Shown in pieces: positions 34,803 through 53,308 of a DNA stretch of 64,000 bases (positions within the stretch are counted from its first letter, which is position 1; the number at the start of each line of letters is the position of its first letter). The DNA is from an uncultured virus (IMG/VR IMGVR_UViG_3300028569_000010) (taxonomy: Duplodnaviria > Heunggongvirae > Uroviricota > Caudoviricetes): the IMG/VR virus record IMGVR_UViG_3300028569_000010, one strand, 5' to 3'. The position numbers and the translations under genes were made by a program. The notes under the pieces were generated by a model that ran no database searches, was not told the DNA's origin, and saw only the letters and a list, made by a program, of their open reading frames with translations.

Positions 34803-34805
34803 ACC

Positions 34806-34883
34806 TAAGTCGTTAGTATATAAGGAGTTAGGTTCGATAGTCAGCGGCGAGTTTGATGTAAGTCTTTATATATCAACAACTTA
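34806..34883. repeat. Bipartite palindromic element E1 (25-28-25)
   Basis: Boxes taagtcgttagtatataaggagtta and taagtctttatatatcaacaactta. Confidence 0.9.
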
Positions 34884-34913
34884 CGACAAAAACAATTATT
34901 TTGGATTTTTGTC

Positions 34914-34941
34914 TTGACAACTCAAGTTTGCTCTGTATAAT
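34914..34941 (+). promoter_or_regulatory. Sigma70-type early promoter
   Basis: TTGACA-16-TATAAT followed by GTCGATA. Confidence 0.85.
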
Positions 34942-34982
34942 GTCGATATAAGAAGTAAGAGAGAAAGAAAGAGAAAAGAGAA

Positions 34983-35201
34983 ATGGAAAAAGTCACTCAT
35001 ATCAACAGTTTTATTGGTTCGCTTCCCCGCATTGTCCAGAAGAAAATCTGGAAAGTGACCGATACCGATGGTACGGTTGTTCAGTATGTTTCCGCTTCCG
35101 ATAATCGCAAGTATACTGCACAAGCGTACATTGATGAAAAGTATGTCGGTCAAAAACTTGTCCTGACGTTCTCACACTTCAAGGGATTGATGACCCTCTA
35201 A
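34983..35201 (+). CDS. Small hypothetical early protein
   Basis: First ORF after the E1 promoter, purine-rich leader. Confidence 0.65.
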   Translation: MEKVTHINSFIGSLPRIVQKKIWKVTDTDGTVVQYVSASDNRKYTAQAYIDEKYVGQKLVLTFSHFKGLMTL

Positions 35202-35424
35202 TAGAGGGGGTTGATAACGAGAAAAGATTTGATAGAGTATTAGAAAGAGAAAGAGAGAAAAATGAAAACGTTTTACTTCTTCAGTTATGGTGAACACAAG
35301 TTTATCGGCCAAGCAGAATCTACCGATTGGATGACAGCCCAAAAAATTGTTGCAAATGCGACAGGGTTCCCTATCGATGATCTGCTACCCTATAGTTCAA
35401 AAAATATTTGGGAATTCTAAGGGA

Positions 35425-35454
35425 TTGACAAGTTGATAGCCGATACTGTATAAT
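35425..35454 (+). promoter_or_regulatory. Sigma70-type promoter
   Basis: TTGACA-18-TATAAT with GCCGATA in the spacer. Confidence 0.75.
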
Positions 35455-35481
35455 AGAGAAACAAAAGAAAAGGAAAATAAT

Positions 35482-35670
35482 ATGAACAGCCTTGATAAGA
35501 TTCTGGCCGCTATGCGTACTGGTAAGTATGGTAGCGTATTCGACACCGCCGGTAATGTTCACGTTGGTATTATAAATGGCCTCATGCGTGAGGATGGTAG
35601 TGGTAAAAACTGGATTGTTACGATTACTAATAAGACGGTAAGTGAAAACGTGTTTATTCACGCACAATAA
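35482..35670 (+). CDS. Small hypothetical early protein
   Basis: AGGA RBS, follows the promoter. Confidence 0.65.
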   Translation: MNSLDKILAAMRTGKYGSVFDTAGNVHVGIINGLMREDGSGKNWIVTITNKTVSENVFIHAQ

Positions 35671-36020
35671 AACAAGGAGTCAAGGATGATACAGATAGAT
35701 TGGGTACAAATAGGTGTGGGATTTATTGCTGGTATTATTAGTAGTTATCTTGTTTGTGACATTGTTTTTCCCGTAGGAGATAAGGATGAATAAGGTTTTT
35801 ACTGTTGCTTTTCTTCTAGGTTGTATTGTTACATACTTCATTTCTTAATAAGGTGGATAATGTATAACTTTGATGACGTAAACGATATCCTTGCAGAAAT
35901 GCGTGATGAGCGTATGATTGAACCTATTGACGATCCTAACATTCAAACCAACTTTTACGATTGGGCAGAAGTTGTGGGTATTATGTGGGATATTGAACCT
36001 GAATCTACATTCATTTGACG

Positions 36021-36098
36021 TAAAGCCTTGCTACTAAAGGACTTAGAGCGAGGCGGGCGAGGCGGATTCGTCGTAAGTCTTTATCCCACAATGGTTTA
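36021..36098. repeat. Element E2
   Basis: taaagccttgctactaaaggactta-28-taagtctttatcccacaatggttta; TTGACA at 36130. Confidence 0.9.
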
Positions 36099-36180
36099 CG
36101 ACAAAAGTATTTTTTCTTGATTTTTCCGCTTGACATTGCCGATACATAGTGTAGAATAAGCGTACCAAAGGGAGATAATC

Positions 36181-36885
36181 ATGAAAGTTGCAAACGGTAA
36201 TGATAAGTTGGGTAAGGGATGTCTTGTTGTTTCGCGTCCCGTGGGAGATACTTGTCCCTCATCTTGTGCATTTTTGGGTAACGGCTGTTATGCTGAACAG
36301 ACTGAGAAAATGTACCCTAATGTTCGCCCCGCTGGTATGCAAAATGTTATTACTGAAAAGCACCGTATTCGTGCTATGATTCTGGACGCTATTCGGCAGG
36401 GTAAGTCTATCCGCTGGCATGAGCGTGGCGATTGGTTTCTCAATGGTGAGTTAGATTTAGAATATCTCGCCAATGTAACGTGGGCGTGTGAGAGTCTTAT
36501 TGCAGATGGTACAACGCTGCCCGATATGTGGTTTTATACTCATATCTATGATGATCGTCTGGTAAGTCTTAGTAAGTATATGAAAGTATATGCTAGTGTG
36601 CATAATAATGAGGATATGGGTGCGGCTCTTGCGATGGGATTCAAACTCTTCGCATGGTGTGATAGCGACCAGAAAATCGCCCCGAAGCGTCCGAAGCGTA
36701 AAGCCGCCGCTGATGCTTGGCGTAAGAGTCTCCCTAAACTTGTTGTATTGAATGGTACTAAGTTTGTAACTTGCCCCGAGATTCGTCGTGGTCGCGGTGT
36801 TGTAACTTGCACCCCCACTAAGGGTAGTGTATCATGCGACTTGTGCGTTCGTGGTTTGGCTAATGTTCTGTTTCCATCTCACTGA
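36181..36885 (+). CDS. GP88-like phage protein (Cys-rich, possibly Fe-S)
   Basis: GNDKLG...TCPSSC....GCYA, IRWHERGDW, YTH and C-terminal CP...C..C motifs. Confidence 0.65.
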   Translation: MKVANGNDKLGKGCLVVSRPVGDTCPSSCAFLGNGCYAEQTEKMYPNVRPAGMQNVITEKHRIRAMILDAIRQGKSIRWHERGDWFLNGELDLEYLANVTWACESLIADGTTLPDMWFYTHIYDDRLVSLSKYMKVYASVHNNEDMGAALAMGFKLFAWCDSDQKIAPKRPKRKAAADAWRKSLPKLVVLNGTKFVTCPEIRRGRGVVTCTPTKGSVSCDLCVRGLANVLFPSH

Positions 36886-37134
36886 GGATAATATGAAAAG
36901 TTTTACATACGAGTGTGTTACTCTGGAAGATGTATGCAAGCACAATAAACTAGACTATCAAGAAATCGTGCAGGCAGTTTGTGATAGTGATATATCTTTC
37001 GGTAGTAATGCTGACACACTAATGACACGCAGTATGGTGCAGGATATTGTAGATGATTGTTATGAGGATATTTCTGTACAGTTAGATTGGGCCGGTTTTG
37101 ATGATCGAATCCTAATCAGTCTTGGTTCTTGACA

Positions 37135-37212
37135 TAAACCCTTGCCACTAAAGGACTTAGGGCGAGGTCGCCCCGCCAAAATCGTCGTAAGTCTTTGTGT
37201 CACAATACTTTA
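37135..37212. repeat. Element E3
   Basis: taaacccttgccactaaaggactta-28-taagtctttgtgtcacaatacttta; TTGACA at 37244. Confidence 0.9.
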
Positions 37213-37294
37213 CGTCAAATCAAAAAAAATCTGAATTTTCTTCTTGACAACTGAAGTTTGGCCTGTATAATGCCGATATAGAAAGTAAGGAGAA

Positions 37295-37483
37295 ATGAAA
37301 ATGGAAACACTTTATCTGAGCGATTGCTGTGGTGAATATCTCGCGGATGAGCATGTGGAATATGAGGTTTGCCCGCGATGCAAGGAACATTGTGAAGTGT
37401 TGACTGAGGACTACACGACGGTTCCTATGGTTGACGAAGATGGCATCCTGTGGTATGTTCAACTAAATAGGAGAAAGAGATGA
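37295..37483 (+). CDS. Small zinc-finger-like protein
   Basis: SDCCG...CPRCKEHC; AGGAG RBS. Confidence 0.65.
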   Translation: MKMETLYLSDCCGEYLADEHVEYEVCPRCKEHCEVLTEDYTTVPMVDEDGILWYVQLNRRKR

Positions 37484-37701
37484 GTCACCCTGACCCCCTG
37501 TTTGATCCCGATAACTTTTACGAGGACGATATGAATTACGACGATTACAATGACTTTTATGAGGATACGAATGAGGAAACGACCGATGAATCTTGGGATG
37601 ATTCATATGATGATAGTATGGATGGGGATCATGAAAGTGGTTTATCTTCCGCAGGATGGGGAACTGACGAGGACTACGGCTATTACGGAGAAAATGAGTA
37701 A
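37480..37701 (+). CDS. Extremely acidic small protein
   Basis: 73 aa, D/E-rich, no K or R. Confidence 0.65.
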   Translation: MSHPDPLFDPDNFYEDDMNYDDYNDFYEDTNEETTDESWDDSYDDSMDGDHESGLSSAGWGTDEDYGYYGENE

Positions 37702-37907
37702 TGCTACATAGATTTTACGATATCAAATTTGAAAATGAGCAGTTTGCAGAGTTTGCGCATGATAAGGAATATGTGTTGGATGTGCCAGACTATGAAATGA
37801 ATACCCCTCTTGAGAGGCAGGAGTATGTTGGGAATATGCTCGACATTATCGTTGCTGCTAGTGGGCTGAACGTGTGTTCATTTAGCACTGACCACAATAT
37901 TAGTTGA
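37701..37907 (+). CDS. Small hypothetical protein
   Basis: Coupled ORF ending 2 bp before E4. Confidence 0.6.
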   Translation: MLHRFYDIKFENEQFAEFAHDKEYVLDVPDYEMNTPLERQEYVGNMLDIIVAASGLNVCSFSTDHNIS

Positions 37908-37909
37908 CC

Positions 37910-37987
37910 TAAAGCCTTGTCCCTAAAGAACTTAGGGCGAGGCGGGCGGGCCGAATTCGTCGTAAGTCCTTTGGTATCAACATCTTA
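37910..37987. repeat. Element E4 (with an extra single box at 38047-38071)
   Basis: taaagccttgtccctaaagaactta-28-taagtcctttggtatcaacatctta; third box starts 84 bp after box 2; TTGACT at 38104. Confidence 0.9.
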
Positions 37988-38156
37988 CAACCATTTTTCC
38001 AAGAAACCATGTGTCCATTGGTGTGATGAAAAATGTCTCCTAGACCTAAAGCCATATAAAATAAGGACTTAGGGAAAATCCAAAAATCTTTTAAAGATAG
38101 GATTTGACTTTGGTCGATAACTAAGATATAATTCAGCATAAGAAAGAGAGAATGAA

Positions 38157-38342
38157 ATGGTTATCGAAGTTTTCAAGAATGGTCGAACGATTGGTTTTGT
38201 GGTTGCGAAAGATAGGCTGTCTTCGGTCGATCTGATCGTTAAGACTTTCCCCCAAGTGGATCGCGTTGAGACAAATTCATCGCTCCCCAAGAGTGATCCG
38301 CGATGCAAGGAAATCGCAGAAAATGTTTACGCTTGGGCTTGA
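38157..38342 (+). CDS. Small hypothetical early protein
   Basis: First ORF after the promoter at 38104-38132. Confidence 0.6.
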   Translation: MVIEVFKNGRTIGFVVAKDRLSSVDLIVKTFPQVDRVETNSSLPKSDPRCKEIAENVYAWA

Positions 38343-38392
38343 CACCCTACCAAAACTTGCTAGAATCCAACCAACACAGAAAAGGAAAGAAT

Positions 38393-38710
38393 ATGAAACA
38401 GAAATTTGAGATTATCGAAAACGCTAAGAAACAGGCCCGCATGTGCTTCCTCGGAATCGCTATCCCGACCGAAGTGAAGAATATCGACGGAGAGATGATA
38501 CAGGTCGAAAAGGTTCTCAAGTTCAATCGCAAGGCACTTCGTAACATGGGTAAGGATCATCGCAAGCAAAGTGTCGATCCTCGCTATATTGGGGGAGAAG
38601 ACAAGATGATTGTGAAAGTTGGCAAGCCAGGAAGCAAAGAGCGTGTGGAGGCTTTGGCTCAGATGTACGCAAGTGCGGGAGATGCTGACTACTCCGCTTT
38701 CAAAGACTGA
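38393..38710 (+). CDS. Hypothetical protein
   Basis: MKQKFE start with AGGA RBS after the promoter at 38339-38366; stop is 3 bp before E5. Confidence 0.6.
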   Translation: MKQKFEIIENAKKQARMCFLGIAIPTEVKNIDGEMIQVEKVLKFNRKALRNMGKDHRKQSVDPRYIGGEDKMIVKVGKPGSKERVEALAQMYASAGDADYSAFKD

Positions 38711-38713
38711 ACA

Positions 38714-38791
38714 TAACCCGTTGCTGCATAAGGACTTGCGGCGAGGCGGGCGGGCCGAATTTGCCATAAGTCTAATGATACCAACACTTTA
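38714..38791. repeat. Element E5
   Basis: taacccgttgctgcataaggacttg-28-taagtctaatgataccaacacttta; TTGACT at 38822. Confidence 0.85.
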
Positions 38792-38886
38792 TGTCTAGAA
38801 AGATTTTTCTAAAGATTATGCTTGACTCTTGACGATCTATACTGTAGAATGTAGAAAAGTTGAAAGTCTCACTAAAAGGAAAAGTT

Positions 38887-39291
38887 ATGAATGATTTGGT
38901 TGTTATTTCTGGTGGTTGCTTTGTTCTTGCTTGTGTTGTTTTGTTTGTATTCTATTACATTTTGAATGGGGTTCATGGTTCACTCGCCAACTCTAATGTT
39001 GGAGAAATCTATAACTTTGAATATGAGCAACCCCTTACTGGAGAGTATAGGCGTTTTCTCGCTAAAGTTGTCTCTCCCGTTGTGATGATGACTGATAATG
39101 ATGTAAAGAGGTTGAACGCTAAAAGTAGGTATCGTAGGTATGATCCCAACTTCGTTCGTGGTAAGTGTTTGGTCACTTGTCAAATGGTTGACGGTACGAT
39201 CCGTAACTTCTACGCTGAACGTACTAGGAATGTCCGTAAGTTGCCTGTAAAAAATAAGTTGCTCTATAAAGTTGCATCATTCATGATTTGA
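38887..39291 (+). CDS. Membrane-anchored hypothetical protein
   Basis: N-terminal hydrophobic helix; C-terminal domain ends DGTIRNFYAER (SH3/WYL-like, weak). Confidence 0.6.
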   Translation: MNDLVVISGGCFVLACVVLFVFYYILNGVHGSLANSNVGEIYNFEYEQPLTGEYRRFLAKVVSPVVMMTDNDVKRLNAKSRYRRYDPNFVRGKCLVTCQMVDGTIRNFYAERTRNVRKLPVKNKLLYKVASFMI

Positions 39292-39305
39292 TTGCTGTTT
39301 CGTCC

Positions 39306-39383
39306 TAAGTTGTTGCAAACACAGCACTTAGGGCGAATTCGGCGGGCTGGGATCGACGTAAGTCCTTTCATATCAATAACTTA
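39306..39383. repeat. Element E6
   Basis: taagttgttgcaaacacagcactta-28-taagtcctttcatatcaataactta; TTGACA at 39404. Confidence 0.9.
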
Positions 39384-39673
39384 GGATAAAATTCAAGTTT
39401 GTCTTGACAGATGTCGATACATGGTGTAAGATGGTATGCACAAAGGAGTTATGTATATGTCAAAAGAGGAAGATTGGGTACAACCGGAAGAAGAGACAGA
39501 ATGGCAACTCTTGGTAGAGTGGGAGGAATGGGTAAGATCACACCCAACCCCACCGACGCGGGAGGATGGGCAGTCCTGCCCAAACTAGAAAGATCATTGA
39601 TTTTTCCGCATAGCCAGCACGTTTGCCTAAAGTTAGACTTGACAGATGGACGATAATAAGGTATACTGAGCAT

Positions 39674-40186
39674 ATGAATATATTCGTATTAGATAACGAT
39701 CCGCGAACGTCAGCAGAGTATATGTGTGATAAGCATATACCTAAGATGATCGTAGAGACATTCCAGATGATGGGTAGTGCTTTGAGGCGTCATGGTGCTA
39801 CAGATGAGCAGATGCCACTTACGCAGGCCGGAAAACCCCTAGTTGGTGGATATAAACATCACCCGTGTACCGTATGGGCGGGAGATAGTATATGTAACTT
39901 TGTCTGGTTAGGAATACATGGTATATCATTGTGTGACGAGTTTATGCTACGCTATCGTAAAGTCCATAGTTGTGATATGAAAATACGTCAAATGTGTGAA
40001 CTTATGGATATGCTGCCAAATATACCGCAAACACCATATGCACTGGCTATGCCAGATGAGTATAAGTCAGAAAATGCTATTGACTCTTACCGTCGATACT
40101 ATACAATGGAAAAGGCTCGTTTTGCCAAATGGGAGAAGGGCCGCGAGGCTCCATGCTGGTGGAATAAGGAGGAATGTTATGTATAA
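39674..40186 (+). CDS. Pyrimidine-dimer DNA glycosylase/endonuclease V-like protein
   Basis: MNIFVLD...A...CDKHIPKMIVE...HHPCTVWA...AMPDEYK...SYRRYY; ATG 6 nt after a -10 box (leaderless). Confidence 0.8.
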   Translation: MNIFVLDNDPRTSAEYMCDKHIPKMIVETFQMMGSALRRHGATDEQMPLTQAGKPLVGGYKHHPCTVWAGDSICNFVWLGIHGISLCDEFMLRYRKVHSCDMKIRQMCELMDMLPNIPQTPYALAMPDEYKSENAIDSYRRYYTMEKARFAKWEKGREAPCWWNKEECYV

Positions 40187-40427
40187 TATATTTGATAGTT
40201 ATGAACCATATGAACTTCGTGATATGTATAATGATGGCATGAATAGTTGGCCTGACGATTTTAGGCATTGGATGCACGACCAAATGGCTAATGATTTGTT
40301 AGACCAGTGGCTTGAAACTGTTACAGATGAAGAGTATATGGAACGTGCTAAAGATATTATTGAATCTGAAACGTATGGATATGAAGATGAGGATGGTAAC
40401 GAAATGCTAGATTTCAAGGTGGAATAA
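40178..40427 (+). CDS. Acidic hypothetical protein
   Basis: MYNIFDSYEPYE start (approximate) after AGGAGG RBS. Confidence 0.55.
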
Positions 40428-40592
40428 TGGTAGATTATACTGATGAAACATTCTCAACCGTAGAGCATATCGCTAATGGTAAGGGGCTGGCATTAGTCTG
40501 TAATTATCACTATGAGTTGACAAACGCTGACGGTGTGGTATACTGGTCTTATTATCTCAGGGACATCCTAAACTTTCTAAAGGAATATAAAA

Positions 40593-41075
40593 ATGCCTAA
40601 TTGGTGCATGAATAATGTTACTATTACTCACCCCAAGCGTGATAAGTTGCAGGAGTTTGTTGACGCATACAATAGTGGCGGCGTGTGTAACCATTTCGCC
40701 CCACAGCCTAAAGACTTGAACGAACATGACTGTTTTGCCCCCAATGGGTGGTATACTTGGCGTTGTAATAACTGGGGAACTAAATGGGATTTTGGTAGAG
40801 AAGATGGACAAGACCCTATAGAGATTATCAACGATGAAGTGAGTTTTAGTTGTCATACTGCGTGGTCGCCCCCCATTGAGTTTTACAATATGCTCCAGAA
40901 GAAAAAGTATAGTATTCATGCTACATACTGGGAACCCGGTATTGGATTCTGTGGAACATACGAGAATGGCGTAGAAGATACTATTGAATATGAAGATAAG
41001 TCTGAAATTCCAGATGAGTTGTGGGATGAGTATGGAATGGCAGACTTTTTCGAAGAGACGGAGGCTGACGCTTGA
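40593..41075 (+). CDS. DUF1281/YubB ferredoxin-like family protein, copy 1
   Basis: MPNWCMN...WYTWRCNNWGTKWD...TAWSPP...YWEPGIGFCG. Confidence 0.75.
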   Translation: MPNWCMNNVTITHPKRDKLQEFVDAYNSGGVCNHFAPQPKDLNEHDCFAPNGWYTWRCNNWGTKWDFGREDGQDPIEIINDEVSFSCHTAWSPPIEFYNMLQKKKYSIHATYWEPGIGFCGTYENGVEDTIEYEDKSEIPDELWDEYGMADFFEETEADA

Positions 41076-41118
41076 CCTGTGCGAGACTGTGTGGTATACT
41101 CATGCAGTCTCGCATATT

Positions 41119-41191
41119 GGGGGTGTAACTTAGCGACTAAAGTAGCGGTCTTTTAAACCGTTTATCGTGGGTTTGAGTCCCACCGCCCCCA
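41119..41191 (+). tRNA. tRNA-Lys(UUU)
   Basis: Acceptor GGGGGTG/CGCCCCC; anticodon arm gcggt-ctTTTaa-accgt; T arm gtggg-tttgagt-cccac. Confidence 0.85.
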
Positions 41192-41403
41192 TTTCTTTAT
41201 AAAGGGTGTATTATGATAGAGTTATATGTTATGATTATGTTATGGATTTTGATCTTTGGATTTACTGGAGATAATCATGGAGAGTAACTTTGTATATAAT
41301 GAATACGTTATGGGTGACGCTGACTACTACGAAGACCAAGAATACCCTAAACAGACTTGGGACTACTATGAACTCTATGGTGAAGAGATAGACGAACTAG
41401 ACG

Positions 41404-41481
41404 TAAGTAGTTGATAAATAAGGACTTATGGATGATGCGAGCCGCCGAACTTGATCTAAGTCCTTGTGGCGTAAAGACTTA
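41404..41481. repeat. Element E7
   Basis: taagtagttgataaataaggactta-28-taagtccttgtggcgtaaagactta; TTGACA at 41513. Confidence 0.9.
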
Positions 41482-41562
41482 CGACAAATAAATATTTTTC
41501 AAGGTTTCGCTATTGACAAGCCGATAATAGAGTGTAGAATGGTGGAGTAAGACAAAACAAAC

Positions 41563-41644
41563 GTGATGCTGGCAAAGTGGAGGCCACAACCTAGTTGTCG
41601 GGTAAAACCAACTCTCGCCTTTAGAGTAAAGAGACAACCATCAC
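41563..41644 (+). ncRNA. Candidate structured ncRNA (multi-stem junction)
   Basis: Downstream of a strong promoter with no convincing ORF; GTGATG/CATCAC closing stem encloses four short hairpins. Confidence 0.4.
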
Positions 41645-41764
41645 ACAAACATCCGTGGGTTAATGCCTTGAACTAGATTAGGATAAGCCATTACGATAAA
41701 ACCTGCTGGAGATGCAGCATAAAGGTTGACAGCGGGCTTATACGCTGTATAGTAGTGCTAGTCT

Positions 41765-41939
41765 ATGGGGGATAGCGTCCCGACCACGACGCAATATCAT
41801 CAAGATCAAAACCAAAAAGCCTTGGGAAATGTCAACGGGTCATAGGGAAGATCGATATACCGTAATGGACAATCGGCCCAAGCGGCTGCGAACCCGTAAG
41901 GCTCTTGACAAGCAGTGGCGTAACGAGTACGATATCTAA
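41765..41939 (+). pseudogene. Frameshifted paralog of the 46847-47047 basic peptide
   Basis: RPRRNIIKIKTKKPWEMSTGHRED...MDNRPKRLRTRK is out of frame with the ATG by one G in a G5 run. Confidence 0.55.
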
Positions 41940-41953
41940 ATAAGGAAAATACT

Positions 41954-42484
41954 ATGCCTAATTGGTGCATGAATAGTCTGACGGTTTCCCATACCGATAA
42001 GGATATGGTTCAAAAGTTCGCTGACGCATGGAACTCTGGTAGTAGGTGTCAACAGTTTATTCCTATGCCAGAGGGTGAAGATTCGACGATGAGCGGCCAA
42101 CGTCGCGGCGCAACGCTCGTCGAGATGCTCGTCGTCATCGATTGGTATTCTTGGAATATTTCAAACTGGGGAACCAAGTGGGACTTTGGTAAGGAAGAGT
42201 ATGAAGATGCCGCTGAAGTAAATCAGAATAAAGATAAATATGAGGTTTGTGTTGGCCTAAACACCGACCCATCGCCACCCATTGACTTCTATAACCATCT
42301 GGTAAAACTTGGATATAATGTTCACGCCAGTTATTTTGAGCCGGGAATGGGATTCTGTGGTATATATCACGATGGATATGATAACTACATAGACTACGGT
42401 GATGACAAGGATAGTATTCCTGTTGGTGTATGGAATGACTTCGGCTTGGATGATTTCTTTGAAATGATGGAAGAAGACGCTTGA
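41954..42484 (+). CDS. DUF1281/YubB-like protein, copy 2, with a 20-aa prepilin-leader insert
   Basis: Paralog of 40593-41075; insert STMSGQRRGATLVEMLVVID. Confidence 0.75.
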   Translation: MPNWCMNSLTVSHTDKDMVQKFADAWNSGSRCQQFIPMPEGEDSTMSGQRRGATLVEMLVVIDWYSWNISNWGTKWDFGKEEYEDAAEVNQNKDKYEVCVGLNTDPSPPIDFYNHLVKLGYNVHASYFEPGMGFCGIYHDGYDNYIDYGDDKDSIPVGVWNDFGLDDFFEMMEEDA

Positions 42485-42836
42485 CAAGTCGATAATACAT
42501 AGTATAATAAGAGAACAATACAAAGGAAAAAGAATGAGAATCTTTCGTAAAATCATTTTGTTCTTCCCATCATTGACCATGTTCTTTTTAGCATACTTTA
42601 CTTTCATTTGTGATAGTGAGGCTACTAAATTTAGTTTTAGGTGGAAATAATGACTAAAGACAATATTATTGCTGCTAAAGCATTTATTCAAGTACGAGAA
42701 GAACTCATAGAAATTAAGAGTCTGGTTAGACAGTTTATAGATGAAATTGCGGGCGTCCCTTTTAGGGCTGTTGACTGTGACCAAGAAGCCGTGTATGATT
42801 TGTGGAACAAACTAATTAAAGCAGCAGGATCGACCA

Positions 42837-43061
42837 ATGACCGTTAATGAACTTATTGAGGCTCTGAACCACTATCCCGGCGATATGACGGTATTGACCC
42901 TTGGTTATGAGGGTGGGTATGATGATGTGGGTATACACACCGAAGATATTGTGTTCAATGTTCATGATAAAGACACCTGGTATTATGGGCCTCATGAGTG
43001 TGTGAAGTATACCGATAGTGATATTAGTATGAAATGTTTGATTGTTGGAAGAGGTAGGTAA
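42837..43061 (+). CDS. Small phage hypothetical protein
   Basis: MTVNELIEALNHYPGDM.V...GYEGG pattern. Confidence 0.6.
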   Translation: MTVNELIEALNHYPGDMTVLTLGYEGGYDDVGIHTEDIVFNVHDKDTWYYGPHECVKYTDSDISMKCLIVGRGR

Positions 43062-43065
43062 ATAT

Positions 43066-43380
43066 ATGGAGTGGAATAACTCTCATAAGAATCCGCCAGA
43101 GAGTGGACAGAAGGTTTATTACTTTGGGCCTAACATTGGCATAGGTATTGGTTTTTATTCTTACGAAAAAGATAGACACTTTTATCCAATCTACTATAAG
43201 AATGGCATAAAAATGTTTGACCCTAAACCAGTACAACTTTGTCCACATATATTTGAGAATGTTAACTTGGGAGTGGTAGACGCTTGTGATGCTCCGTTCT
43301 GGCTACCATATGATTACGAACGGGCTAAGAGTTGGTGTCCGATTATTCCAGAAGAATATACCAAAGATTTGTACGACTGA
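43066..43380 (+). CDS. Hypothetical protein
   Basis: MEW...PPESGQKV...FWLP, DUF551-like outline (weak). Confidence 0.5.
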   Translation: MEWNNSHKNPPESGQKVYYFGPNIGIGIGFYSYEKDRHFYPIYYKNGIKMFDPKPVQLCPHIFENVNLGVVDACDAPFWLPYDYERAKSWCPIIPEEYTKDLYD

Positions 43381-43503
43381 ACATGGAATTGAAAACTCTT
43401 AGCGATATTTGCCCATGTGGGGCGTGTGAAGTTTTAGTATGGAAATACGACAATAATGGCTTAATCTGGAATTTTTGCCAGCAATGCCACTGGTGGTATG
43501 TCG

Positions 43504-43581
43504 CAAATGATTGATAGATAAGGACTTACAGCTAGGTGGGCGGGCCGGATTTGACCTAAGTGCTTATATATCAACAACTTA
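43504..43581. repeat. Element E8
   Basis: caaatgattgatagataaggactta-28-taagtgcttatatatcaacaactta; TTGACT at 43602. Confidence 0.9.
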
Positions 43582-43770
43582 GGATTTTCTAAAGTTTTCT
43601 CTTGACTTTGGACGATGATAGTGTAGAATCATGAGTATGAATACTAAATATATTTGGCGTGTTTTTAAAAATAACAAGTTTATTGGTTACGTTTATTCGC
43701 CTAGCGAAATAGACGCAATGCGTAAGGCTAATGAAAAGTTTGGTTCTTATATTCTTATTGAGCGTATAAG

Positions 43771-44247
43771 ATGAAAACTTTATATGGCGAAGTGCGATTT
43801 CACCTGGGTGGTGGAGCCAATTATATGCACTGGCAATTGAAAATTAAACAAGGTGGCAAGACCGTAGAAGTTTGCTATTTTGATCCGTCTGAGTATCAGT
43901 TGGAGATGAGGGGTTGCAAACTCCGTAACCGTCCTAATAAAGCCAAGCAAGTTTTTGAGGCTGGTGTGCATGATGTGAGTGGCTGGGTAAGATGTGAAGA
44001 AACAATGTTGAGAAAAAGTTTTTATCCTGTTTTGCCTGTTGACAATCTTGAGCGTGTGTTTTATAATCCACTGCGTGACCCACACTGGCGACGAGAAAGT
44101 GATAATAATGAGTTTATTTGGGATGAGACTGAGTATGCTACGCTGATTACGCATGGCAAGCAAGTGTACATTCTAGAAGAACACGACTGTGTATTTGACG
44201 ATCTTAGAGAAATTGACCCAAAGTATTTAGGAGATTTTAAGGTATGA
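43771..44247 (+). CDS. Hypothetical protein
   Basis: 158-aa ORF coupled to its neighbours. Confidence 0.6.
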   Translation: MKTLYGEVRFHLGGGANYMHWQLKIKQGGKTVEVCYFDPSEYQLEMRGCKLRNRPNKAKQVFEAGVHDVSGWVRCEETMLRKSFYPVLPVDNLERVFYNPLRDPHWRRESDNNEFIWDETEYATLITHGKQVYILEEHDCVFDDLREIDPKYLGDFKV

Positions 44248-44612
44248 TTAGTATTCAGGTGACGATTGCCGAGGCTATTGCTATTGCTAACACGGCGAGT
44301 AACGATCTGCATGATCGTATCGTGAAGAGTATCGAAGTGGCTCTTGGTATCAATCAGAGTCGTGATGTAACGATTACTAAGATGCCGGGAGATAATCGTA
44401 TTCCTTGTATCAAGGCTATTCGCTCGCACTCTGGATGGGGCCTGAGAGAGGCTAAAGAGTGGACGGATGTGTTGGTTGGGCGTTGGGATAGCACTTATAA
44501 TGGTTGGACTAAGGGTGCCTCAAAACACACCATTAAGTTGGCAACCCCCGCCGCAGCCGAGGCTCTCATGCGTGATCTGGTTGGTTTGGGTTGTGAAGGG
44601 TTTCTTTCTTAG
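44244..44612 (+). CDS. Ribosomal protein bL12 (L7/L12) C-terminal-domain-like protein
   Basis: VTIT..GDNRIPCIKAIRSHSGWGLREAKEWTD...AAEALMRDL..LG matches the KI.VIK.VR..TGLGLKEAK..V pattern. Confidence 0.7.
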   Translation: MISIQVTIAEAIAIANTASNDLHDRIVKSIEVALGINQSRDVTITKMPGDNRIPCIKAIRSHSGWGLREAKEWTDVLVGRWDSTYNGWTKGASKHTIKLATPAAAEALMRDLVGLGCEGFLS

Positions 44613-44620
44613 GAGTAACA

Positions 44621-45226
44621 ATGCTTAAATACAAAAAGTATTACGGGCAGTATACTGACGGCGGTAGTCGTAACAGTTTCTATACTATTAAAGATAGTAA
44701 ATATGGATTTAAGGAGTTTCCTAGTAAAGATTTGGCTATATTTTCATACGCCGTACAAAAGAAACTTTCTGAACATAATCTTGCCCCATATGTATACAGT
44801 CAAGTAGGACGTATTCGTATTCCAGAATATATTTCTACAAAAGAAGGTATAACTAAAACTCACGATATTCTTAGTGGGTGGGGTTACTTGACTGAAATAG
44901 CACAATTTTATGAATGTGCAAACTATGGAAATGATTACGAATGTGACGAACATTGTTATTACGAGGGTAACTGTAAAAACTACGATAAAATCTCTACTTT
45001 ATTTGATATGGCATCAGAACTTGGTATTGAGTACTCTGATGGTCATAATGGAAATCTTGGCTGGGTAAAACGTAATAGGAGAAAGACTCTTGTTATCATT
45101 GACCTTGGGCGTGAAAGTATTGGAGATTATGATCGTGGTATTTACCCTAATGTAGATGAATATGGAGAATACGACGATTACAATAACTATAGTGGTTGCT
45201 CATGTACTGCCTGTAGGAAATGGTAA
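44621..45226 (+). CDS. Protein kinase-like fold protein
   Basis: YGFKEF (catalytic Lys), LAPYVY, SDGHNGNLG (DxHxxN loop), IIDLG (DFG-like). Confidence 0.65.
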   Translation: MLKYKKYYGQYTDGGSRNSFYTIKDSKYGFKEFPSKDLAIFSYAVQKKLSEHNLAPYVYSQVGRIRIPEYISTKEGITKTHDILSGWGYLTEIAQFYECANYGNDYECDEHCYYEGNCKNYDKISTLFDMASELGIEYSDGHNGNLGWVKRNRRKTLVIIDLGRESIGDYDRGIYPNVDEYGEYDDYNNYSGCSCTACRKW

Positions 45227-45471
45227 TGCCTAAATACTACATAAACTGCGGCACTTTACAACTTATATACTCAACTGATAAAAATGCAGAAGACGCTGCC
45301 GTTTCTGCACTGTGGGAAACAAACAAGAATGACGTTCTAGATGAGTACTTCTACATAGACGAACGTGGATATAGAGACTACACAAACGCAGACAAAGAAA
45401 CTACGGTCATAAAGATGAAGACAATCTGTAGGAAAGCAGGATGGGAGATAAATAAGGAAGATAATTCATAA
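45226..45471 (+). CDS. Hypothetical protein
   Basis: Its stop TAA is the first three bases of E9 box 1. Confidence 0.6.
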   Translation: MPKYYINCGTLQLIYSTDKNAEDAAVSALWETNKNDVLDEYFYIDERGYRDYTNADKETTVIKMKTICRKAGWEINKEDNS

Positions 45472-45546
45472 GTCCAAGTGGCATAAGCACTTAGAGCTAG
45501 CCACGCCCGCCGGATTCGCCCTAAGTCCTTATCTGACAACAACTTA
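45469..45546. repeat. Element E9
   Basis: taagtccaagtggcataagcactta-28-taagtccttatctgacaacaactta; TTGACA at 45578. Confidence 0.9.
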
Positions 45547-45651
45547 CGTCAAATTCTTTTTTTCTAAAGAGAATGGCTTGACAGAGACGATAATTAGAGT
45601 ATACTTAGGACATGATGATTGATAGCCTACTAAATGAAAAAGGAGATGATT

Positions 45652-45894
45652 ATGAAAAAGTTTACGTTTCGCGTTGATGTGCTGAGTGATTCGTTTGTCG
45701 ATGTTGATGGTATTCGTCAGACTCTTTCTGAGGCTGTGAATGGGCTGGGTGCCTATACTGCCGCTACCCCAACTGGTACTGAGGATCTGACCGACCAGGG
45801 TCTGAAGGTGTTCGCAAAGCGTGTCATGGGCATTAGCCTTGCAACGCCGAAGGTGAAGAAGGCCAAGGCGGTCGCTGAAACTGTCGAGGCTTGA
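45652..45894 (+). CDS. Hypothetical protein
   Basis: AGGAG RBS before MKKFTF; GC-richer codon usage. Confidence 0.6.
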   Translation: MKKFTFRVDVLSDSFVDVDGIRQTLSEAVNGLGAYTAATPTGTEDLTDQGLKVFAKRVMGISLATPKVKKAKAVAETVEA

Positions 45895-46125
45895 TTTTCT
45901 AAAGTGTATCTGCTAGAATGACGATACTAGATGAAGTAGTAGTAATCTAGTGTCCATTCTGGCTAACTAAAGGATGTAATATGAAAGTAGTTGGTATTGG
46001 TACTAAACTCAAACTGGGTACAGTACTGAAGATTTTGAAGGATAGTGTGATTGTAAATCGTCAAGGTAAGAATGTCGCTGTGACGTTCTCTCAAGTTGAA
46101 CATGAAGTTTTTGGAGGTTGATATT

Positions 46126-46341
46126 ATGGGTTATCTTGCTCTTAGTAAGGCTATTCGTGTTGGTAAGACGCTTCGTTGTAAGTATCCGAAGCACGGTAGT
46201 CAGAATGTGTTGAAGTGGCATGAGGGTGTTATTGAGAAGGCCGACTTTGGCCCTAATGGTGCCTATGCTCTGATTCGTTCTGATAGTAATAAGTATCGTA
46301 CCCTCCGCTGCGATAAGATGATCGACGCCACGGTGTCGTGA
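46126..46341 (+). CDS. Small SH3/WYL-like hypothetical protein
   Basis: GGAGG RBS; C-terminal YRTLRCDKMI resembles the WYL RxFxxDRI motif (weak). Confidence 0.5.
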   Translation: MGYLALSKAIRVGKTLRCKYPKHGSQNVLKWHEGVIEKADFGPNGAYALIRSDSNKYRTLRCDKMIDATVS

Positions 46342-46392
46342 CCTTGACGGGGCGAGTAGCCCATGCTATAATGGTGTGGGCTACTCGTTTGC

Positions 46393-46468
46393 GGGGCGGA
46401 AGGTAAGCCGGTTGCATCCGACACTCTTATAAGGTGTTCATAGGTAGGTTCGACTCCTACCCGCCCTA
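46393..46468 (+). tRNA. tRNA-Ile(UAU)
   Basis: Acceptor GGGGCGG/CCGCCCT with A73; anticodon arm acact-ctTATaa-ggtgt; T arm gtagg-ttcgact-cctac. Confidence 0.85.
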
Positions 46469-46638
46469 CTGTTCGGGTTTACGAACTGTGGAGGGTGCAT
46501 GATAGAACTATTTATATTGATATGGATATGGAGTATGCTATTCTCAGATAAAAACTAAATAATATAACGAATGTGGATTGTGTTGAGACAAACTAACGTA
46601 ATAAATAAAGCGTCAAATGAATCCCTAATATTCAATAT

Positions 46639-47019
46639 ATGAGAAGGACCGAAAGGATGATACAGTGGATTGGTGCTTTCGTGGCAGTACTTGGCTTACT
46701 ATATACTGGTGTAAAAGATTATCAGCACGGAGATATATCTTTCCCCAAAATAAAACAGAAAGAGTTGACAAAGCCAAAGCATCCGATACAATACTGTCTA
46801 ATGGCTTACGACCCTAACCTAAATAAAGTTTTTTACTTACACGAAAATGGACAATGGCATGATTACGCTCCAGAACAACGACGATATGAGACAACGCCGC
46901 AAGGTGTTCAAGATCAAGGTAAAGAAACCGTGGGAACTATCTACGGGACACAGGGAAGATCGCGGGGATACTACTATGGACAACAGGCCCAAGCGTATGC
47001 GAACACGCAAAGACATTGA
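46639..47019 (+). CDS. Membrane-anchored hypothetical protein (overlaps the next ORF)
   Basis: N-terminal TM segment WIGAFVAVLGLLY. Confidence 0.45.
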   Translation: MRRTERMIQWIGAFVAVLGLLYTGVKDYQHGDISFPKIKQKELTKPKHPIQYCLMAYDPNLNKVFYLHENGQWHDYAPEQRRYETTPQGVQDQGKETVGTIYGTQGRSRGYYYGQQAQAYANTQRH

Positions 47020-47047
47020 GCGTTCGTGGCAGATGGAGAATGACTAA
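46847..47047 (+). CDS. Basic peptide (KKPWE.STGHRED...MDNRPKR.RTRK)
   Basis: Protein-level paralog at 41765-41939 supports this frame. Confidence 0.6.
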   Translation: MDNGMITLQNNDDMRQRRKVFKIKVKKPWELSTGHREDRGDTTMDNRPKRMRTRKDIERSWQMEND

Positions 47048-47191
47048 TGTATCACTATATTACTGTGCAGATTGTGATGCGTGACTGTCATTCTGAAGAG
47101 GATGCACAAATGAAATGCGAAAGATTGTTACCATATAATCCAGATGAGAATTCTACTTATATGGAATCGTGGGAAATAATAGATGTAAGAG

Positions 47192-47428
47192 ATGCCAAAG
47201 ATGAATAACGAACATATAGGAACATACATATATGATGAACGCTTAGACTATGGTGTTTATGAAGTATATGCTATGTATGACTCATGGAAAGATCGTGATA
47301 ACAGAAACGCCGCGTGGTATGACATATATGACAAAAATGGAATATGCGTAAACGAAGGTAATCCATACTACCAAATACCTACGTGGCAAGAGATATTTGA
47401 TACATATTATATGGAGCATGTGAACTAA
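47192..47428 (+). CDS. Hypothetical protein
   Basis: 78-aa ORF before E10. Confidence 0.55.
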   Translation: MPKMNNEHIGTYIYDERLDYGVYEVYAMYDSWKDRDNRNAAWYDIYDKNGICVNEGNPYYQIPTWQEIFDTYYMEHVN

Positions 47429-47460
47429 GGCTTGGGAAGACTAGACACCGCGATTCGTTC

Positions 47461-47538
47461 TAAGTCCTTGATGCGACAAGACTTACGGCGAATCCGGCCC
47501 GCCGAATCGATCCTAAGTCTTTATGTGGCAACGACTTA
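47461..47538. repeat. Element E10
   Basis: taagtccttgatgcgacaagactta-28-taagtctttatgtggcaacgactta; TTGACT at 47571. Confidence 0.9.
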
Positions 47539-47617
47539 CGACAAATCCAAAAAATCCTAATGCTAACCCCTTGACTTGGACGATTATAGATGTATAATCA
47601 GCGTACTGGAGAAAAGA

Positions 47618-47857
47618 ATGATTGCCTTCGCTAATGCAGACAGTGTTGTAGAAGTTGGATGTGCTATGTGTGGTACATCATATGCAATTATGTATAATCG
47701 TGAGGATATGGTAGATTGGTTGTCTGGTCAAGGATTTATTCAAGACCTTATGCCATACCTTTCTGATGCTGAACGTGAACTGTTTATCTCTAGAACGTGC
47801 GGAGACTGTTTCGATAAACTGTTTCCAGCCCCTATTGACAACGAAGAAAACGTCTGA
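47618..47857 (+). CDS. Small zinc-binding protein
   Basis: CAMC...IQDLMPYLSDAERELFISRTCGDCF; GGAG RBS. Confidence 0.6.
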   Translation: MIAFANADSVVEVGCAMCGTSYAIMYNREDMVDWLSGQGFIQDLMPYLSDAERELFISRTCGDCFDKLFPAPIDNEENV

Positions 47858-47896
47858 TACAATACACTAAGTTGATTTCCCACTACTAAGGAGTTT

Positions 47897-49108
47897 ATGA
47901 TGATTTCTGAATATACTAAGATTGTCCCTGTTGATTCTACGAAGAATGCTGGTTCGTTTGTGCGTAATCTTACTGGTAATACTGGTACGGGTTTTGCGGA
48001 AGGTACGCATGTTCATAAGGATTGGTGGGCTAAGACCCTTTCCTATGATACGGTTCTGACTCGCGTTCAGGCCGATATTGATAATCGTGAAGATATTATG
48101 GTCAAGGTGAAGGATATTCACCCTGAGTTCAATGAGCAGGATCAGTTCTGCTTTGGAGTTGACGGTCGCCAGTTTGTTCCTACGGATTGGAGTCTCCAGC
48201 AGTTTTCTACTCGCCTTGCGGCTCCCTCTACTTCTGTCATGCGTGAAATGCGTGGCGTCGAAGGGTTTGATCGTCAAGATGCAGAGTTGATGGTTGATTT
48301 TGCCAATAACTATCTGCGTAGGCTTGATCCTGACAAGGAGTTCCGCCTGCGTACTTATGTCGATGGTACTTGTCGTGCGTTCGTGACTGATAAGTATGCA
48401 CCTGTCGATAATCGCTGGTATCTTGAAACTCTCCGCGAGTTCCTGCCCAGTGCTAGGTTCTCACACTGGCGTGGAGATGAGGATACCCTGTATGGTAATC
48501 TTCTCCTTCCCGATAGTATTATGGACTATGGACAGGATGACGATACGGATTATGGTGGAATGGTTTCCATCGGTAACTGCGAGATCGGCAAGCGTCGTTT
48601 GTCGCAGACTCCCAGCATCTTTCGTGCTATCTGTATGAACGGGTGCATTTGGGGTCAGAATAAGGGTAAGGATATTTCCAAGGTTCATCGTGGAACTATC
48701 GACCTTATCGACCTAAAGACTCGTATCGCTGAGAATATCGAATATCAGTTGAGCATCCTGCCCGATGGTATTAGAAAGTTTCTTGACACTCGTACTCAGA
48801 AGATTGGTACGCATAGTATCAAGGGTGTAATCGCTGCGATTTGCGATGATTATCGCCTTGATAAGAAACAGTCTACGGAAGTGCTGGAACAGTTTATCAC
48901 CCACGAACACGATCACCAAAATCTGTTCGGTGTTATCAACGCCGTCACCCGTGCTGGTCAAGAATTCAATGCGGAAGCATGGTACAATCTTGATGAAGTT
49001 GGTGGAAAGTTGATGGAAGTTTCTGCCGCTCGTTGGGATACCATCCTGCGTCGTGCTGATACCTACACCTACAAAGAATATGAGAAGGTTTTTGCCGTAA
49101 TGGCATAG
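47897..49108 (+). CDS. DUF932-family protein
   Basis: RAFVTDKYAPVDN...GNCEIG...IFRAICMNGCI...H.G...NLFGVINAVTRAGQ. Confidence 0.75.
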   Translation: MMISEYTKIVPVDSTKNAGSFVRNLTGNTGTGFAEGTHVHKDWWAKTLSYDTVLTRVQADIDNREDIMVKVKDIHPEFNEQDQFCFGVDGRQFVPTDWSLQQFSTRLAAPSTSVMREMRGVEGFDRQDAELMVDFANNYLRRLDPDKEFRLRTYVDGTCRAFVTDKYAPVDNRWYLETLREFLPSARFSHWRGDEDTLYGNLLLPDSIMDYGQDDDTDYGGMVSIGNCEIGKRRLSQTPSIFRAICMNGCIWGQNKGKDISKVHRGTIDLIDLKTRIAENIEYQLSILPDGIRKFLDTRTQKIGTHSIKGVIAAICDDYRLDKKQSTEVLEQFITHEHDHQNLFGVINAVTRAGQEFNAEAWYNLDEVGGKLMEVSAARWDTILRRADTYTYKEYEKVFAVMA

Positions 49109-49118
49109 TGGGAAGGGC

Positions 49119-49170
49119 ATGGCGGTTGGGGTGCATAATCTATAACTTATCCCCCAGCCGCTATCCTTTT
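49119..49170 (+). terminator. Hairpin terminator after the DUF932 gene
   Basis: atggcggttggggg...cccccagccgctat followed by cctttt. Confidence 0.6.
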
Positions 49171-49183
49171 CGCCCTCTTGACG

Positions 49184-49261
49184 TAAACCCTTGTAGCCTA
49201 AAGACTTAGAGCGAACGGGGCGCGCCGAAATCATCCTAAGTTCTTATGTAGCAAGGACTTG
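49184..49261. repeat. Element E11
   Basis: taaacccttgtagcctaaagactta-28-taagttcttatgtagcaaggacttg; overlaps TTGCGT-17-TATAAT. Confidence 0.9.
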
Positions 49262-49432
49262 CGTCAAGTCGCCAGTTTTGTTATAATGGGATGTGTGGGT
49301 ATTCTCTATTGTCTATGTGGTATAGATAACATAGAGATATTGGACAATTTTCCCTCAAGTTCAGCGGCTGTCTCAGCCGATATAATAAGGTATTGCTAGA
49401 TATTCACAGTCAGCGAAAAAGGAGATTTTTAT

Positions 49433-49660
49433 ATGCAGAATGACGCAAAAATAATTGACAATCCAGATGTATGTAATTTAGTAATGACGGAGAAGGGTAA
49501 GCCTGAAGGATATCTTATGTGTAAGGCTATGAATGTATTTGATAACAAGTATCGCGTTAACATATATAGTAAGCGCCTCGTAGATGGTATAGAGGGTAAC
49601 GCTATAAGCCACACTTATTTTGTATCTTACGCAAAGGATAAGATTAAGTTCTTGTCCTAG
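49433..49660 (+). CDS. Hypothetical protein
   Basis: AGGAG RBS; NVFDNKYRVNIY motif. Confidence 0.6.
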   Translation: MQNDAKIIDNPDVCNLVMTEKGKPEGYLMCKAMNVFDNKYRVNIYSKRLVDGIEGNAISHTYFVSYAKDKIKFLS

Positions 49661-49807
49661 CTTATCTTATAAGGTACTGCCACATGCTGATAGTCAGCGA
49701 GTTTCGCTTGACTTTAGTGTGGCCCTGTTGTATAATTATATGGTCGTGTCTTATCTAAACAAACAAAGTATTCCGTGATATCCACAGTCAGCGTATAAGG
49801 AGCTATA

Positions 49808-53295: not shown

Positions 53296-53308
53296 AAAGG
53301 AGAAATTT

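Follow-up and report, generated by a model that had tools for sequence, protein, structure and literature searches.

An array of exactly built double palindromes linked to early promoters in a clade of uncultured lake phages

The early region of an uncultured tailed phage (Caudoviricetes; IMG/VR record IMGVR_UViG_3300028569_000010), analysed here as a stretch of 64,000 nucleotides (the window), contains eleven copies of a 78-bp element that consists of two 25-bp palindromic boxes separated by 28 GC-rich base pairs. We propose, with a probability of about 0.5, that these elements form a double-stranded operator array for one DNA-binding protein that coordinates the early promoters at the head of gene cassettes. 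The proposal builds on computed properties of the elements, namely their anatomy, their invariance, the lack of selection for a hairpin, a one-sided and phased link to promoters and conservation throughout a clade of phages, from which we infer protein binding, its stoichiometry and the sign of control; the binding protein could be encoded either by the phage or by its host.

Each of the eleven elements (E1 to E11; Table 1) comprises a 9-7-9 box, 28 GC-rich bp and a second 9-7-9 box, and all of them lie on the + strand. Counting the flanks, the boxes can be described as 15-7-15, and their centres are 53 bp apart, which corresponds to five helical turns. The left part of the oriented consensus reads cTtGaCG, then TAAaCCCTT-N7-AAGGACTTA, then GGGCaAG..GGCCGGCC.., and the right part reads ..tTtGaCG, then TAAGTCCTT-N7-AAcaaCTTA, then CGaCAAA. 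The element resolves into four copies of one 16-bp half-site, approximately yTTGnCs-TAAGTCCTT; all four half-sites have a common consensus, with the two inner arms conserved best. Box 2 has an AT-rich core, and box 1 has one that is richer in GC.

A search of the window for ACTTA-N28-TAAGT with at most one mismatch returned 17 matches, compared with 5.79 ± 2.28 in shuffled sequences; eleven of them are the elements, and the remaining six have AT-rich spacers and lie outside the 34.8–49.3 kb interval. The box pattern, with up to three mismatches allowed, matched 39 times (versus 14.8 ± 4.2), including 21 of the 22 boxes and one extra box beyond E4. A weight-matrix scan of all 64 kb found exactly eleven elements, all on the + strand, and none besides. 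These results confirm a preliminary description of this DNA, made from the sequence alone, which had reported eleven elements at these same starts, with an exact 25-28-25 geometry and none elsewhere in the window. The same description had correctly noted the extra box, the flanks that extend the palindromes and the placement of several elements at stop codons: E2, E3 and E4 start 2 bp past the end of an upstream open reading frame (ORF), E5 starts 3 bp past one, and E9 uses a stop codon as its first bases. The extra box, which starts 84 bp after box 2 of E4, is probably the scar of a deletion or recombination within an element.

Loci related to the array were fetched with the pattern AAGGACTTA-N28-TAAGTCYTT, which yielded 119 stretches of IMG/VR contigs, many of them with several matches, and a total of 385–413 unique elements distributed over approximately 66 contig groups. 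The contigs that bear elements are relatives of the window phage and have many early, middle and structural proteins in common with it, in a broadly similar order. Four whole records of 88, 131, 128 and 231 kb carry 21, 6, 13 and 16 elements, respectively, as opposed to none in the shuffled control; in the record with six elements, the array is cut by the contig end. Every whole record, like the window, has a single array in a single orientation. In these records the GC fraction is 0.42–0.45 within the array versus 0.33–0.35 outside it, and in the window it is approximately 0.40–0.43 in the element-bearing stretch versus approximately 0.32 on both flanks. One of the whole records, G002 (131 kb; L157–L163), has the element array and early, middle and repair/replication-type genes in common with the others, but blastp (E ≤ 1e-5) shows no counterpart in it of their terminase and structural module; lineages with different virion modules may thus have the early region in common.

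Outside these phage contigs the element is rare. In 596 Gb of bacterial and archaeal genomes the element pattern matched 34 times, and genuine arrays were found only in L121 and L147, contigs of metagenome-assembled genomes (MAGs) of 17.7 and 20.9 kb. The other 32 matches were discarded as single occurrences of the kind predicted by chance; three that lie in one 1.67-Mb gammaproteobacterial contig failed the weight matrix. The 24 listed sequencing runs that contain the DNA of the window are all lake or freshwater metagenomes, with no RNA data set among them. A megablast search with 7.3 kb of the early region gave no match among 50,697 phage records, and a blastn search with an element and its promoter produced nothing beyond a weak match of the promoter part to T4-like phages (E = 0.4). 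Identity of the terminase to that of any cultured phage does not exceed 27%, the nearest ones being Bacillus and Microcystis records of siphovirus type.

The dimensions of the element are conserved far better than the sequence of its variable parts. In a length test that was free of the element-scan filter but used loci fetched with the N28 pattern, the seed copies being thus pre-selected for a 28-bp spacer, the spacer measured 28 bp in 312 unique GC-rich copies, 27 bp in two and 29 bp in four, with 0–2 copies for each of the other lengths from 18 to 39 bp. The core measured 7 bp in 625 boxes, and each of the other lengths tested (3 to 11 bp) was seen in 0–2. The sequences of cores and spacers vary while their lengths stay essentially invariant, as had been noted for the eleven window copies; the 7-bp cores differ even within one genome and between orthologous elements of close relatives. 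Some variants of half-sites and cores are specific to a lineage, such as TAAGTGCTT, which is frequent in G004, and the ATTYYTC cores of G001. In the latter genome (L152–L156; 21 elements), about half of the box-2 cores read ATTTTTC, ATTTCTC or ATTCTTC, and the identity of the variable parts is 0.564, compared with 0.45–0.50 between genomes, which points to gene conversion or to a lineage-specific requirement.

The elements are also linked to promoters. A promoter of the sigma-70 type lies within 110 bp on the downstream side in 173 of 280 dereplicated modules and on the opposite side in 14 of 280. The gap between the element and the -35 hexamer is 19–21 bp in 23 of these modules, 29–32 bp in 65, 40–42 bp in 21 and 50–53 bp in 7, with other values in 57; the distribution has peaks at 20, 30–31 and 41 bp and a minor one near 52 bp. 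By our own arithmetic, with a helical repeat taken as 10.5 bp, these gaps would place the conserved inner arm of box 2 about 4, 5 or 6 turns from the -35 hexamer. In the window, a promoter follows within 20–32 bp of nine of the eleven elements. The preliminary description had counted ten elements at 20 or 30–32 bp from a -35 box; the count holds for nine of them but not for E4, whose promoter is 116 bp away and 32 bp past the extra box. The overlap of E11 with its own -35 box can indeed be read by eye, but this hexamer is weak (3/6 positions) and the site is absent from the list produced by the promoter scan.

The early promoters are near-consensus and have an AT-rich tract upstream. A CGATA(A) motif in the spacer is common to the promoters at 35425, 36130, 38104, 39404, 39639, 41513, 42481, 43602, 45578, 47571 and 51509, and a CTAAAG motif is often found 7–8 bp upstream of the -35 hexamer; by these motifs, which go beyond the sigma-70 consensus, the early promoters form a class of their own. 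The window also has promoters of this class without an element, at 35425, 39639, 40080, 42481 and 51509, so the element is an add-on to cassette-leading promoters rather than a part of the core promoter.

Table 1. Elements, associated promoters and the GC-elevated region in the window
Feature	Coordinates	Strand	Remarks
E1 element	34806..34883	+	box 1, 28-bp spacer, box 2; box pattern and weight matrix
Promoter after E1, TTGACA-16-TATAAT	34914..34941	+	gap 30; promoter scan
E2 element	36021..36098	+	heads GP88/DUF7227 gene
Promoter after E2	36130..36157	+	gap 31; promoter scan
E3 element	37135..37212	+	weight matrix
Promoter after E3	37244..37271	+	gap 31; promoter scan
E4 element	37910..37987	+	weight matrix
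Lone extra box, box-1-like, without GC spacer or second box	38047..38071	+	box pattern
Promoter 32 bp past extra box, 116 bp past E4	38104..38132	+	promoter scan
E5 element	38714..38791	+	weight matrix
Promoter after E5	38822..38850	+	gap 30; promoter scan
E6 element	39306..39383	+	weight matrix
Promoter after E6	39404..39432	+	gap 20; promoter scan
E7 element	41404..41481	+	weight matrix
Promoter after E7	41513..41540	+	gap 31; promoter scan
E8 element	43504..43581	+	weight matrix
Promoter after E8	43602..43629	+	gap 20; promoter scan
E9 element	45469..45546	+	first TAA is the stop codon of ORF 45220-45471
Promoter after E9	45578..45605	+	gap 31; promoter scan
E10 element	47461..47538	+	weight matrix
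Promoter after E10	47571..47598	+	gap 32; promoter scan
E11 element, last of the array	49184..49261	+	weight matrix
Putative promoter overlapping E11 box 2, TTGCGT-17-TATAAT	49259..49287	+	read by eye; putative
GC-elevated early region	34806..50000	.	coincides with element array

Every element can be folded into a long hairpin of about -27 kcal/mol, and several comparisons bear on whether this capacity has been selected. The pairs of columns with the highest mutual information are neighbours rather than pairing partners. In the global hairpin as well as in the two local ones, Watson-Crick pairs are exactly as frequent as the column frequencies predict (n=383), and at the two variable positions of the inner stem they are slightly rarer than expected (0.58 vs 0.63 at 19:60 and 0.46 vs 0.49 at 20:59). 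Native elements fold with a mean energy of -27.35 kcal/mol, compared with -28.49 kcal/mol for half-swapped chimeras (n=233); the two strands are alike in this respect (top, -27.35; bottom, -27.28 kcal/mol; n=233), and exchanging the 7-bp cores between elements causes no significant change in folding (n=139). A local hairpin with box-1R as its loop, in which the core of box 1 would pair with the spacer, was suggested by inspection and by a longest-run test (4.23 versus 3.82 ± 0.05) that is inflated by the relatedness of the elements; it was rejected because core swapping did not confirm it (p = 0.10). Because the covariation, chimera and strand tests are all null, the complementarity of the arms follows from the presence of four conserved half-sites, and such an arrangement would be expected of a protein that recognises duplex DNA in a symmetrical way.

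In the mechanism that we favour, the element would be a composite operator on duplex DNA, in which two inverted-repeat boxes flank a stiff GC-rich core. A dimeric sequence-specific protein would bind each box, so that two dimers come to lie on one face of the helix, and a whole number of helical turns would separate the bound complex from the -35 hexamer of the sigma-70-type promoter at the head of an early cassette. Such complexes would set the output or the timing of 11–21 cassette-leading early promoters per genome in one stroke. As for the sign of this control, activation seems to us slightly less likely than negative control, in which the promoter would be shut off or RNA polymerase held, or than insulation against read-through from upstream. 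Our reasons are that the promoters are already close to consensus, that others of their class do without an element, and that one element overlaps the -35 hexamer.

Several observations weigh against the operator proposal. The element is present at only about one-third of the strong + strand promoter-like sites of the window, and 107 of the 280 modules in relatives are without a promoter by the criteria used. The phasing could be partly inherited, since duplication may copy element and promoter together. The elements adjoin the upstream gene end at a distance of 0–3 bp, including the 3' ends of tRNA genes in relatives, and this abutment would also suit a role at 3' ends or boundaries. Furthermore, no clear sequence-specific DNA-binding Pfam domain was found in the protein families common to at least three of the four whole records, which include ligase, ThyX, UvdE, endonuclease VII, ERCC4 nuclease, a sigma-like protein and many small proteins without a Pfam match. 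The only family with a helix-turn-helix (HTH) domain that was found, represented in the window by the protein encoded at 54507-54947, was rejected as the binder, as it is a family of HNH homing endonucleases. Pfam scans of the window proteins likewise gave no clear candidate regulator.

We tentatively consider a broader and less probable reading, in which the elements would represent a new class of phage cis-element. They might serve as a docking platform with four half-sites for a factor that has no recognisable DNA-binding gene in the phage, either a conserved protein of the host or one of the small early proteins with a novel fold, and might form phased nucleoprotein units in the GC-elevated region, setting both the timing of early promoters and the boundaries of cassette exchange.

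Another reading, possible but rather doubtful, takes the elements as portable recombination scaffolds similar to the promoter-early stem-loops (PeSLs) of T4-type phages, with element and promoter acting as a homology patch for gain, loss and exchange of cassettes between co-infecting relatives and with plasticity as the selected trait. The module of element and promoter is indeed the only sequence common to otherwise unrelated cassettes. A GP88-like homologue is the first gene downstream of 26 elements, and the element that precedes such a gene in L041 is a mosaic of the left flank and box-1 core of L001 with the spacer, box 2 and promoter of L016. Compared with most relatives, the GP88-like cassette is displaced in the window, with its left breakpoint at E2: its homology block begins 10 bp before this element. 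The lone box after E4 with its appearance of a deletion scar, the partial homogenisation of variable parts within G001, the many large contigs that end within the early region and the HNH homing endonuclease genes inside the arrays of relatives all fit this reading. In addition, 274 cross-contig pairs of elements have one flank with a similarity of 85% or more and another with 45% or less, versus 177 pairs alike on both, although this comparison is unable to show enrichment because its design forces the breakpoint into or beside the element.

Other data fit the scaffold reading poorly. The ends of homology blocks in the window fall within an element (± 15 bp) in 8 of 46 cases on the left and 3 of 44 on the right, which is a weak enrichment over the 8% expected; on its right side the GP88-like cassette breaks off at the stop codon of the gene rather than at an element; and early gene order is broadly conserved over the relatives. 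The four whole records, three of which are at least 90% complete, contain no match to the tyrosine recombinase family PF00589 (the control scored in 14/14 genomes) and none to the Y1 transposase family PF01797 (controls scored). Most importantly, homology-driven exchange leaves the invariant lengths of 7 and 28 bp and the four conserved half-sites unexplained. For the earlier suggestion that the elements may be recombination joints, the mosaic junctions and the probable E4 scar speak in favour, but the ends of homology blocks are barely enriched and one rearrangement breakpoint coincides with the end of a gene. The idea that the elements mark programmed DNA ends was discarded, as just 3 of 45 contig ends examined fall inside an element, each at a different position. 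We regard exchange at the elements as real, but it probably arises as a by-product of their shared sequence and does not account for the exact geometry; a by-product of this kind has been proposed for PeSLs (PMC2839356).

It seems unlikely that a host architectural protein such as IHF is responsible, bending the DNA upstream of the early promoters and boosting them straight after injection. In favour of IHF, six boxes of the window match WATCAANNNNTTR exactly, as had been reported (34871, 37975, 39371, 41404(-), 43504(-) and 43569), and the window as a whole has 17 matches versus 8.8 expected. Box 2 contains C-AA-N4-TTA in approximately 65% of the copies and has an AT-rich core, the strong conservation of the motif over a diverse clade would suit a conserved host factor, and no phage-encoded candidate for the binder was found. 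However, the exact E. coli consensus is present in just 25 of 206 dereplicated elements and 6 of the 22 window boxes. IHF requires neither a palindrome nor four half-sites nor a fixed 28-bp GC core, and the best-conserved bases, TAAGTCC / GGACTTA, are outside its consensus. Of the original idea of phased sites for a dimeric DNA-bending protein, the behaviour as a duplex site and the one-sided phasing of promoters have indirect support, while IHF as the binder is not supported. A phage-encoded HU/IHF-like protein, the other candidate suggested at that time, is not supported either, as no gene of this family was found in the four whole records, where the controls scored.

Still less probable is a function of the hairpin in RNA or single-stranded DNA, be it as a terminator, an RNase III site, a stabiliser of the 3' end of the upstream cassette or an extruded cruciform. 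Such a function would be in keeping with the folding of all elements to about -27 kcal/mol, with their position next to the upstream stop codon or tRNA end, and with the lack of + strand intrinsic terminators between the cassettes of the early region in a scan of the window; the stem-loops of PeSLs terminate transcription (PMC2839356). It conflicts with the absence of covariation at every variable position of the stem and with the stability of the chimeras, the symmetry of the strands and the neutrality of core swaps described above. No U tract follows any of the stems of the window elements, and the elements have no Rfam match at E ≤ 0.1. Compensatory change, a U tract and strand-specific stability, by which an intrinsic terminator or an RNase III hairpin could be recognised, are thus all missing. 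Multiplication of a selfish miniature inverted repeat (REP/BIME- or MITE-like) inside the early region would explain the resemblance to paired head-to-head palindromic units with a linker and the multicopy, intergenic occurrence, but is highly improbable given that no Y1 (RAYT-type) transposase was found in the four records, that copies in the same genome differ at about half of the variable positions, that position and orientation are fixed relative to promoters, and that the element is confined to one array and absent from bacterial chromosomes save the two short MAG contigs among the 34 matches.

Among described systems, the PeSL cassette, known from the T4-type phages RB49 and phi1 (PMC2839356), is the closest analogue, but the element is not a member of this family. 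PeSLs also are small repeated cassettes, in which a palindrome is combined with a strong early promoter that is sigma-70-like and has an AT-rich tract upstream; they too directly follow the stop codon of the preceding gene, are concentrated in a plastic region with small accessory genes, and occur at mosaic junctions (PMC2839356). The same source describes the stem-loop of the PeSL as terminating transcription, with a sequence and a placement with respect to the promoter that both vary (PMC2839356), whereas the element studied here has a conserved sequence, a fixed 25-28-25 geometry, phased placement and no selection for pairing. PeSLs reside in T4-type myoviruses, and in the phage of the window no T4 hallmark PHROGs were found in the structural proteins and the terminase is only distantly related to cultured ones. 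Of the PeSL characters, the promoter with its AT-rich tract is present, and neither a maintained variable stem-loop nor residence in a T4-type phage was found.

In enterobacteria, BIME-1/RIP elements consist of two converging palindromic units around an IHF site, and REP/BIME sequences in general are host-chromosomal and mobilised by RAYT proteins. They resemble the element in having two imperfect palindromic units of approximately 35–40 bp, mirrored around a linker of fixed type, and in their extragenic location just past genes. They differ from it in that the element is found only in phages and without a detectable Y1 transposase, has a GC-rich centre (GGCCGGCC-like) and is coupled to promoters; unlike RIP, the element has no IHF consensus in its centre. 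In phage phi29, dimers of protein p4 bind inverted repeats upstream of early and late promoters and act through contacts with RNA polymerase. The common features are widely spaced inverted repeats upstream of strong early promoters, the importance of helical phase and a mode of repression that can hold RNA polymerase. However, phi29 has four sites in one control region, as opposed to 11–21 copies over 15–21 kb here, the sequence and geometry are unrelated, and a p4-like gene was not identified in the present phages.

KorB operators of IncP plasmids, which are palindromic, and the stoperators of Cluster A mycobacteriophages, which are asymmetric, are single 13-bp sites with a known cognate repressor. 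Like them, the element is one motif repeated a dozen or more times over a mobile genome, potentially placing many transcription units under one regulator, and with 11–21 copies per genome, one orientation and a tie to promoters it has the features of a global operator set; the unit here is a 78-bp sequence with four half-sites. Integron attC sites vary in length, are recognised by the adjacent IntI as a folded single strand and bound promoterless cassettes. Imperfect palindromes at the boundaries of cassettes that have one orientation are common to both systems, but the element is invariant in length, no tyrosine recombinase was found and the cassettes have promoters of their own, so that the integron-like mechanism that had been suggested is not supported. 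The 9-7-9 or 15-7-15 inverted arms do have the geometry of a tyrosine-recombinase core site, with its 6–8-bp crossover region between the arms. The resemblance is purely geometric: partner sites of such a recombinase have identical central regions, whereas the 7-bp cores here differ, and there is no PF00589 match in the four records; serine recombinases and DDE transposases were not searched for. Resemblances of box 1 of E2 and E3 to a T3 promoter, of the elements to CIRCE and to the lambda core site, and of the TTGACG flanks to a -35 hexamer were discarded, since each involves few copies only or the wrong orientation or spacing. The element does not belong to the PeSL, attC, REP/BIME, IHF-site or RNA hairpin families. 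Literature searches on the motif, on phage intergenic repeats and on early promoters gave no description of it, and the initial claim that this architecture is undescribed has so far survived both these searches and that of Rfam.

The genes around the array are organised in two divergent blocks. The - strand of bases 300–34,480 carries the genes for the virion and for DNA packaging of a tailed phage, among them those for terminase, protease and giant structural proteins (2,801 and 1,879 amino acids); from 34.8 kb on, every gene is on the + strand. The 320-bp gap between the two blocks contains, just upstream of E1 (34770-34805), a run of eight C residues followed by a tandem GTCAGT repeat (agcgtcagtgtcagtgtcagtacc). 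The early region forms an island with sharp boundaries and approximately 41–45% GC, compared with 32–35% elsewhere, in every relative examined (L023, L051, L080, L025, L042 and others). As guesses, its cause might be an adaptation of codons to the host or an escape from AT-directed silencing.

Two - strand genes that read away from E1 and are conserved in G001, G003 and G004 encode a small protein with a weak Sigma70_r2 match (33357-33857) and a neighbouring 264-amino-acid protein (32579-33373), whose homologue in a relative gives a weak HTH_61 match; these two may be the late-transcription factors of the phage itself. Within the early region, the 73-amino-acid protein encoded at 37480-37701 is extremely acidic, rich in D, E and Y and kept in relatives; its composition makes it a candidate DNA mimic or anti-restriction protein. 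The E7 cassette starts with approximately 400 bp (41540-41950) without a + strand ORF of at least 40 amino acids; a block within it (41643-41796) is 80–82% identical to relatives, and the stretch, which has no Rfam match, may encode a non-coding RNA. The window contains nine tRNA genes (41118-41192, 46393-46469 and 53940-55888). Those for tRNA-Lys(ttt) and tRNA-Ile(tat) are in the early region, just past sigma-70-like matches at 41072 and 46344 that are not preceded by an element.

A small protein encoded at 53267-53527 has homologues in all four whole records (G001–G004) and combines a signal-peptide-like start, a CxNGxC motif and a very basic RxVxVTR repeat, with an isoelectric point of about 11.5. 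The family of HNH homing-endonuclease-like proteins has members at 54507-54947 (+) in the window, 27105-27749 in G001, 129747-130175 in G002 and 168002-168424 in G004. The window copy has an N-terminal HTH domain, and in three relatives a copy of the gene lies within the array but on the other strand from the early genes.

Early regions decide the success of phage infection, yet their control logic in uncultured phages is almost unknown. Here, one exactly built element marks 11–21 early transcription units per genome over a clade of lake phages of 128–231 kb, as judged from four whole records, and it provides a sequence handle for the recognition of early regions and cassette boundaries in metagenomic phage contigs. 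It also raises a concrete biochemical question, namely which factor binds yTTGnCs-TAAGTCCTT, and offers a natural system for studying how helically phased upstream sites tune promoters that are already strong. If the elements steer cassette exchange as well, they would link regulation to the turnover of genes for host takeover and anti-defence.

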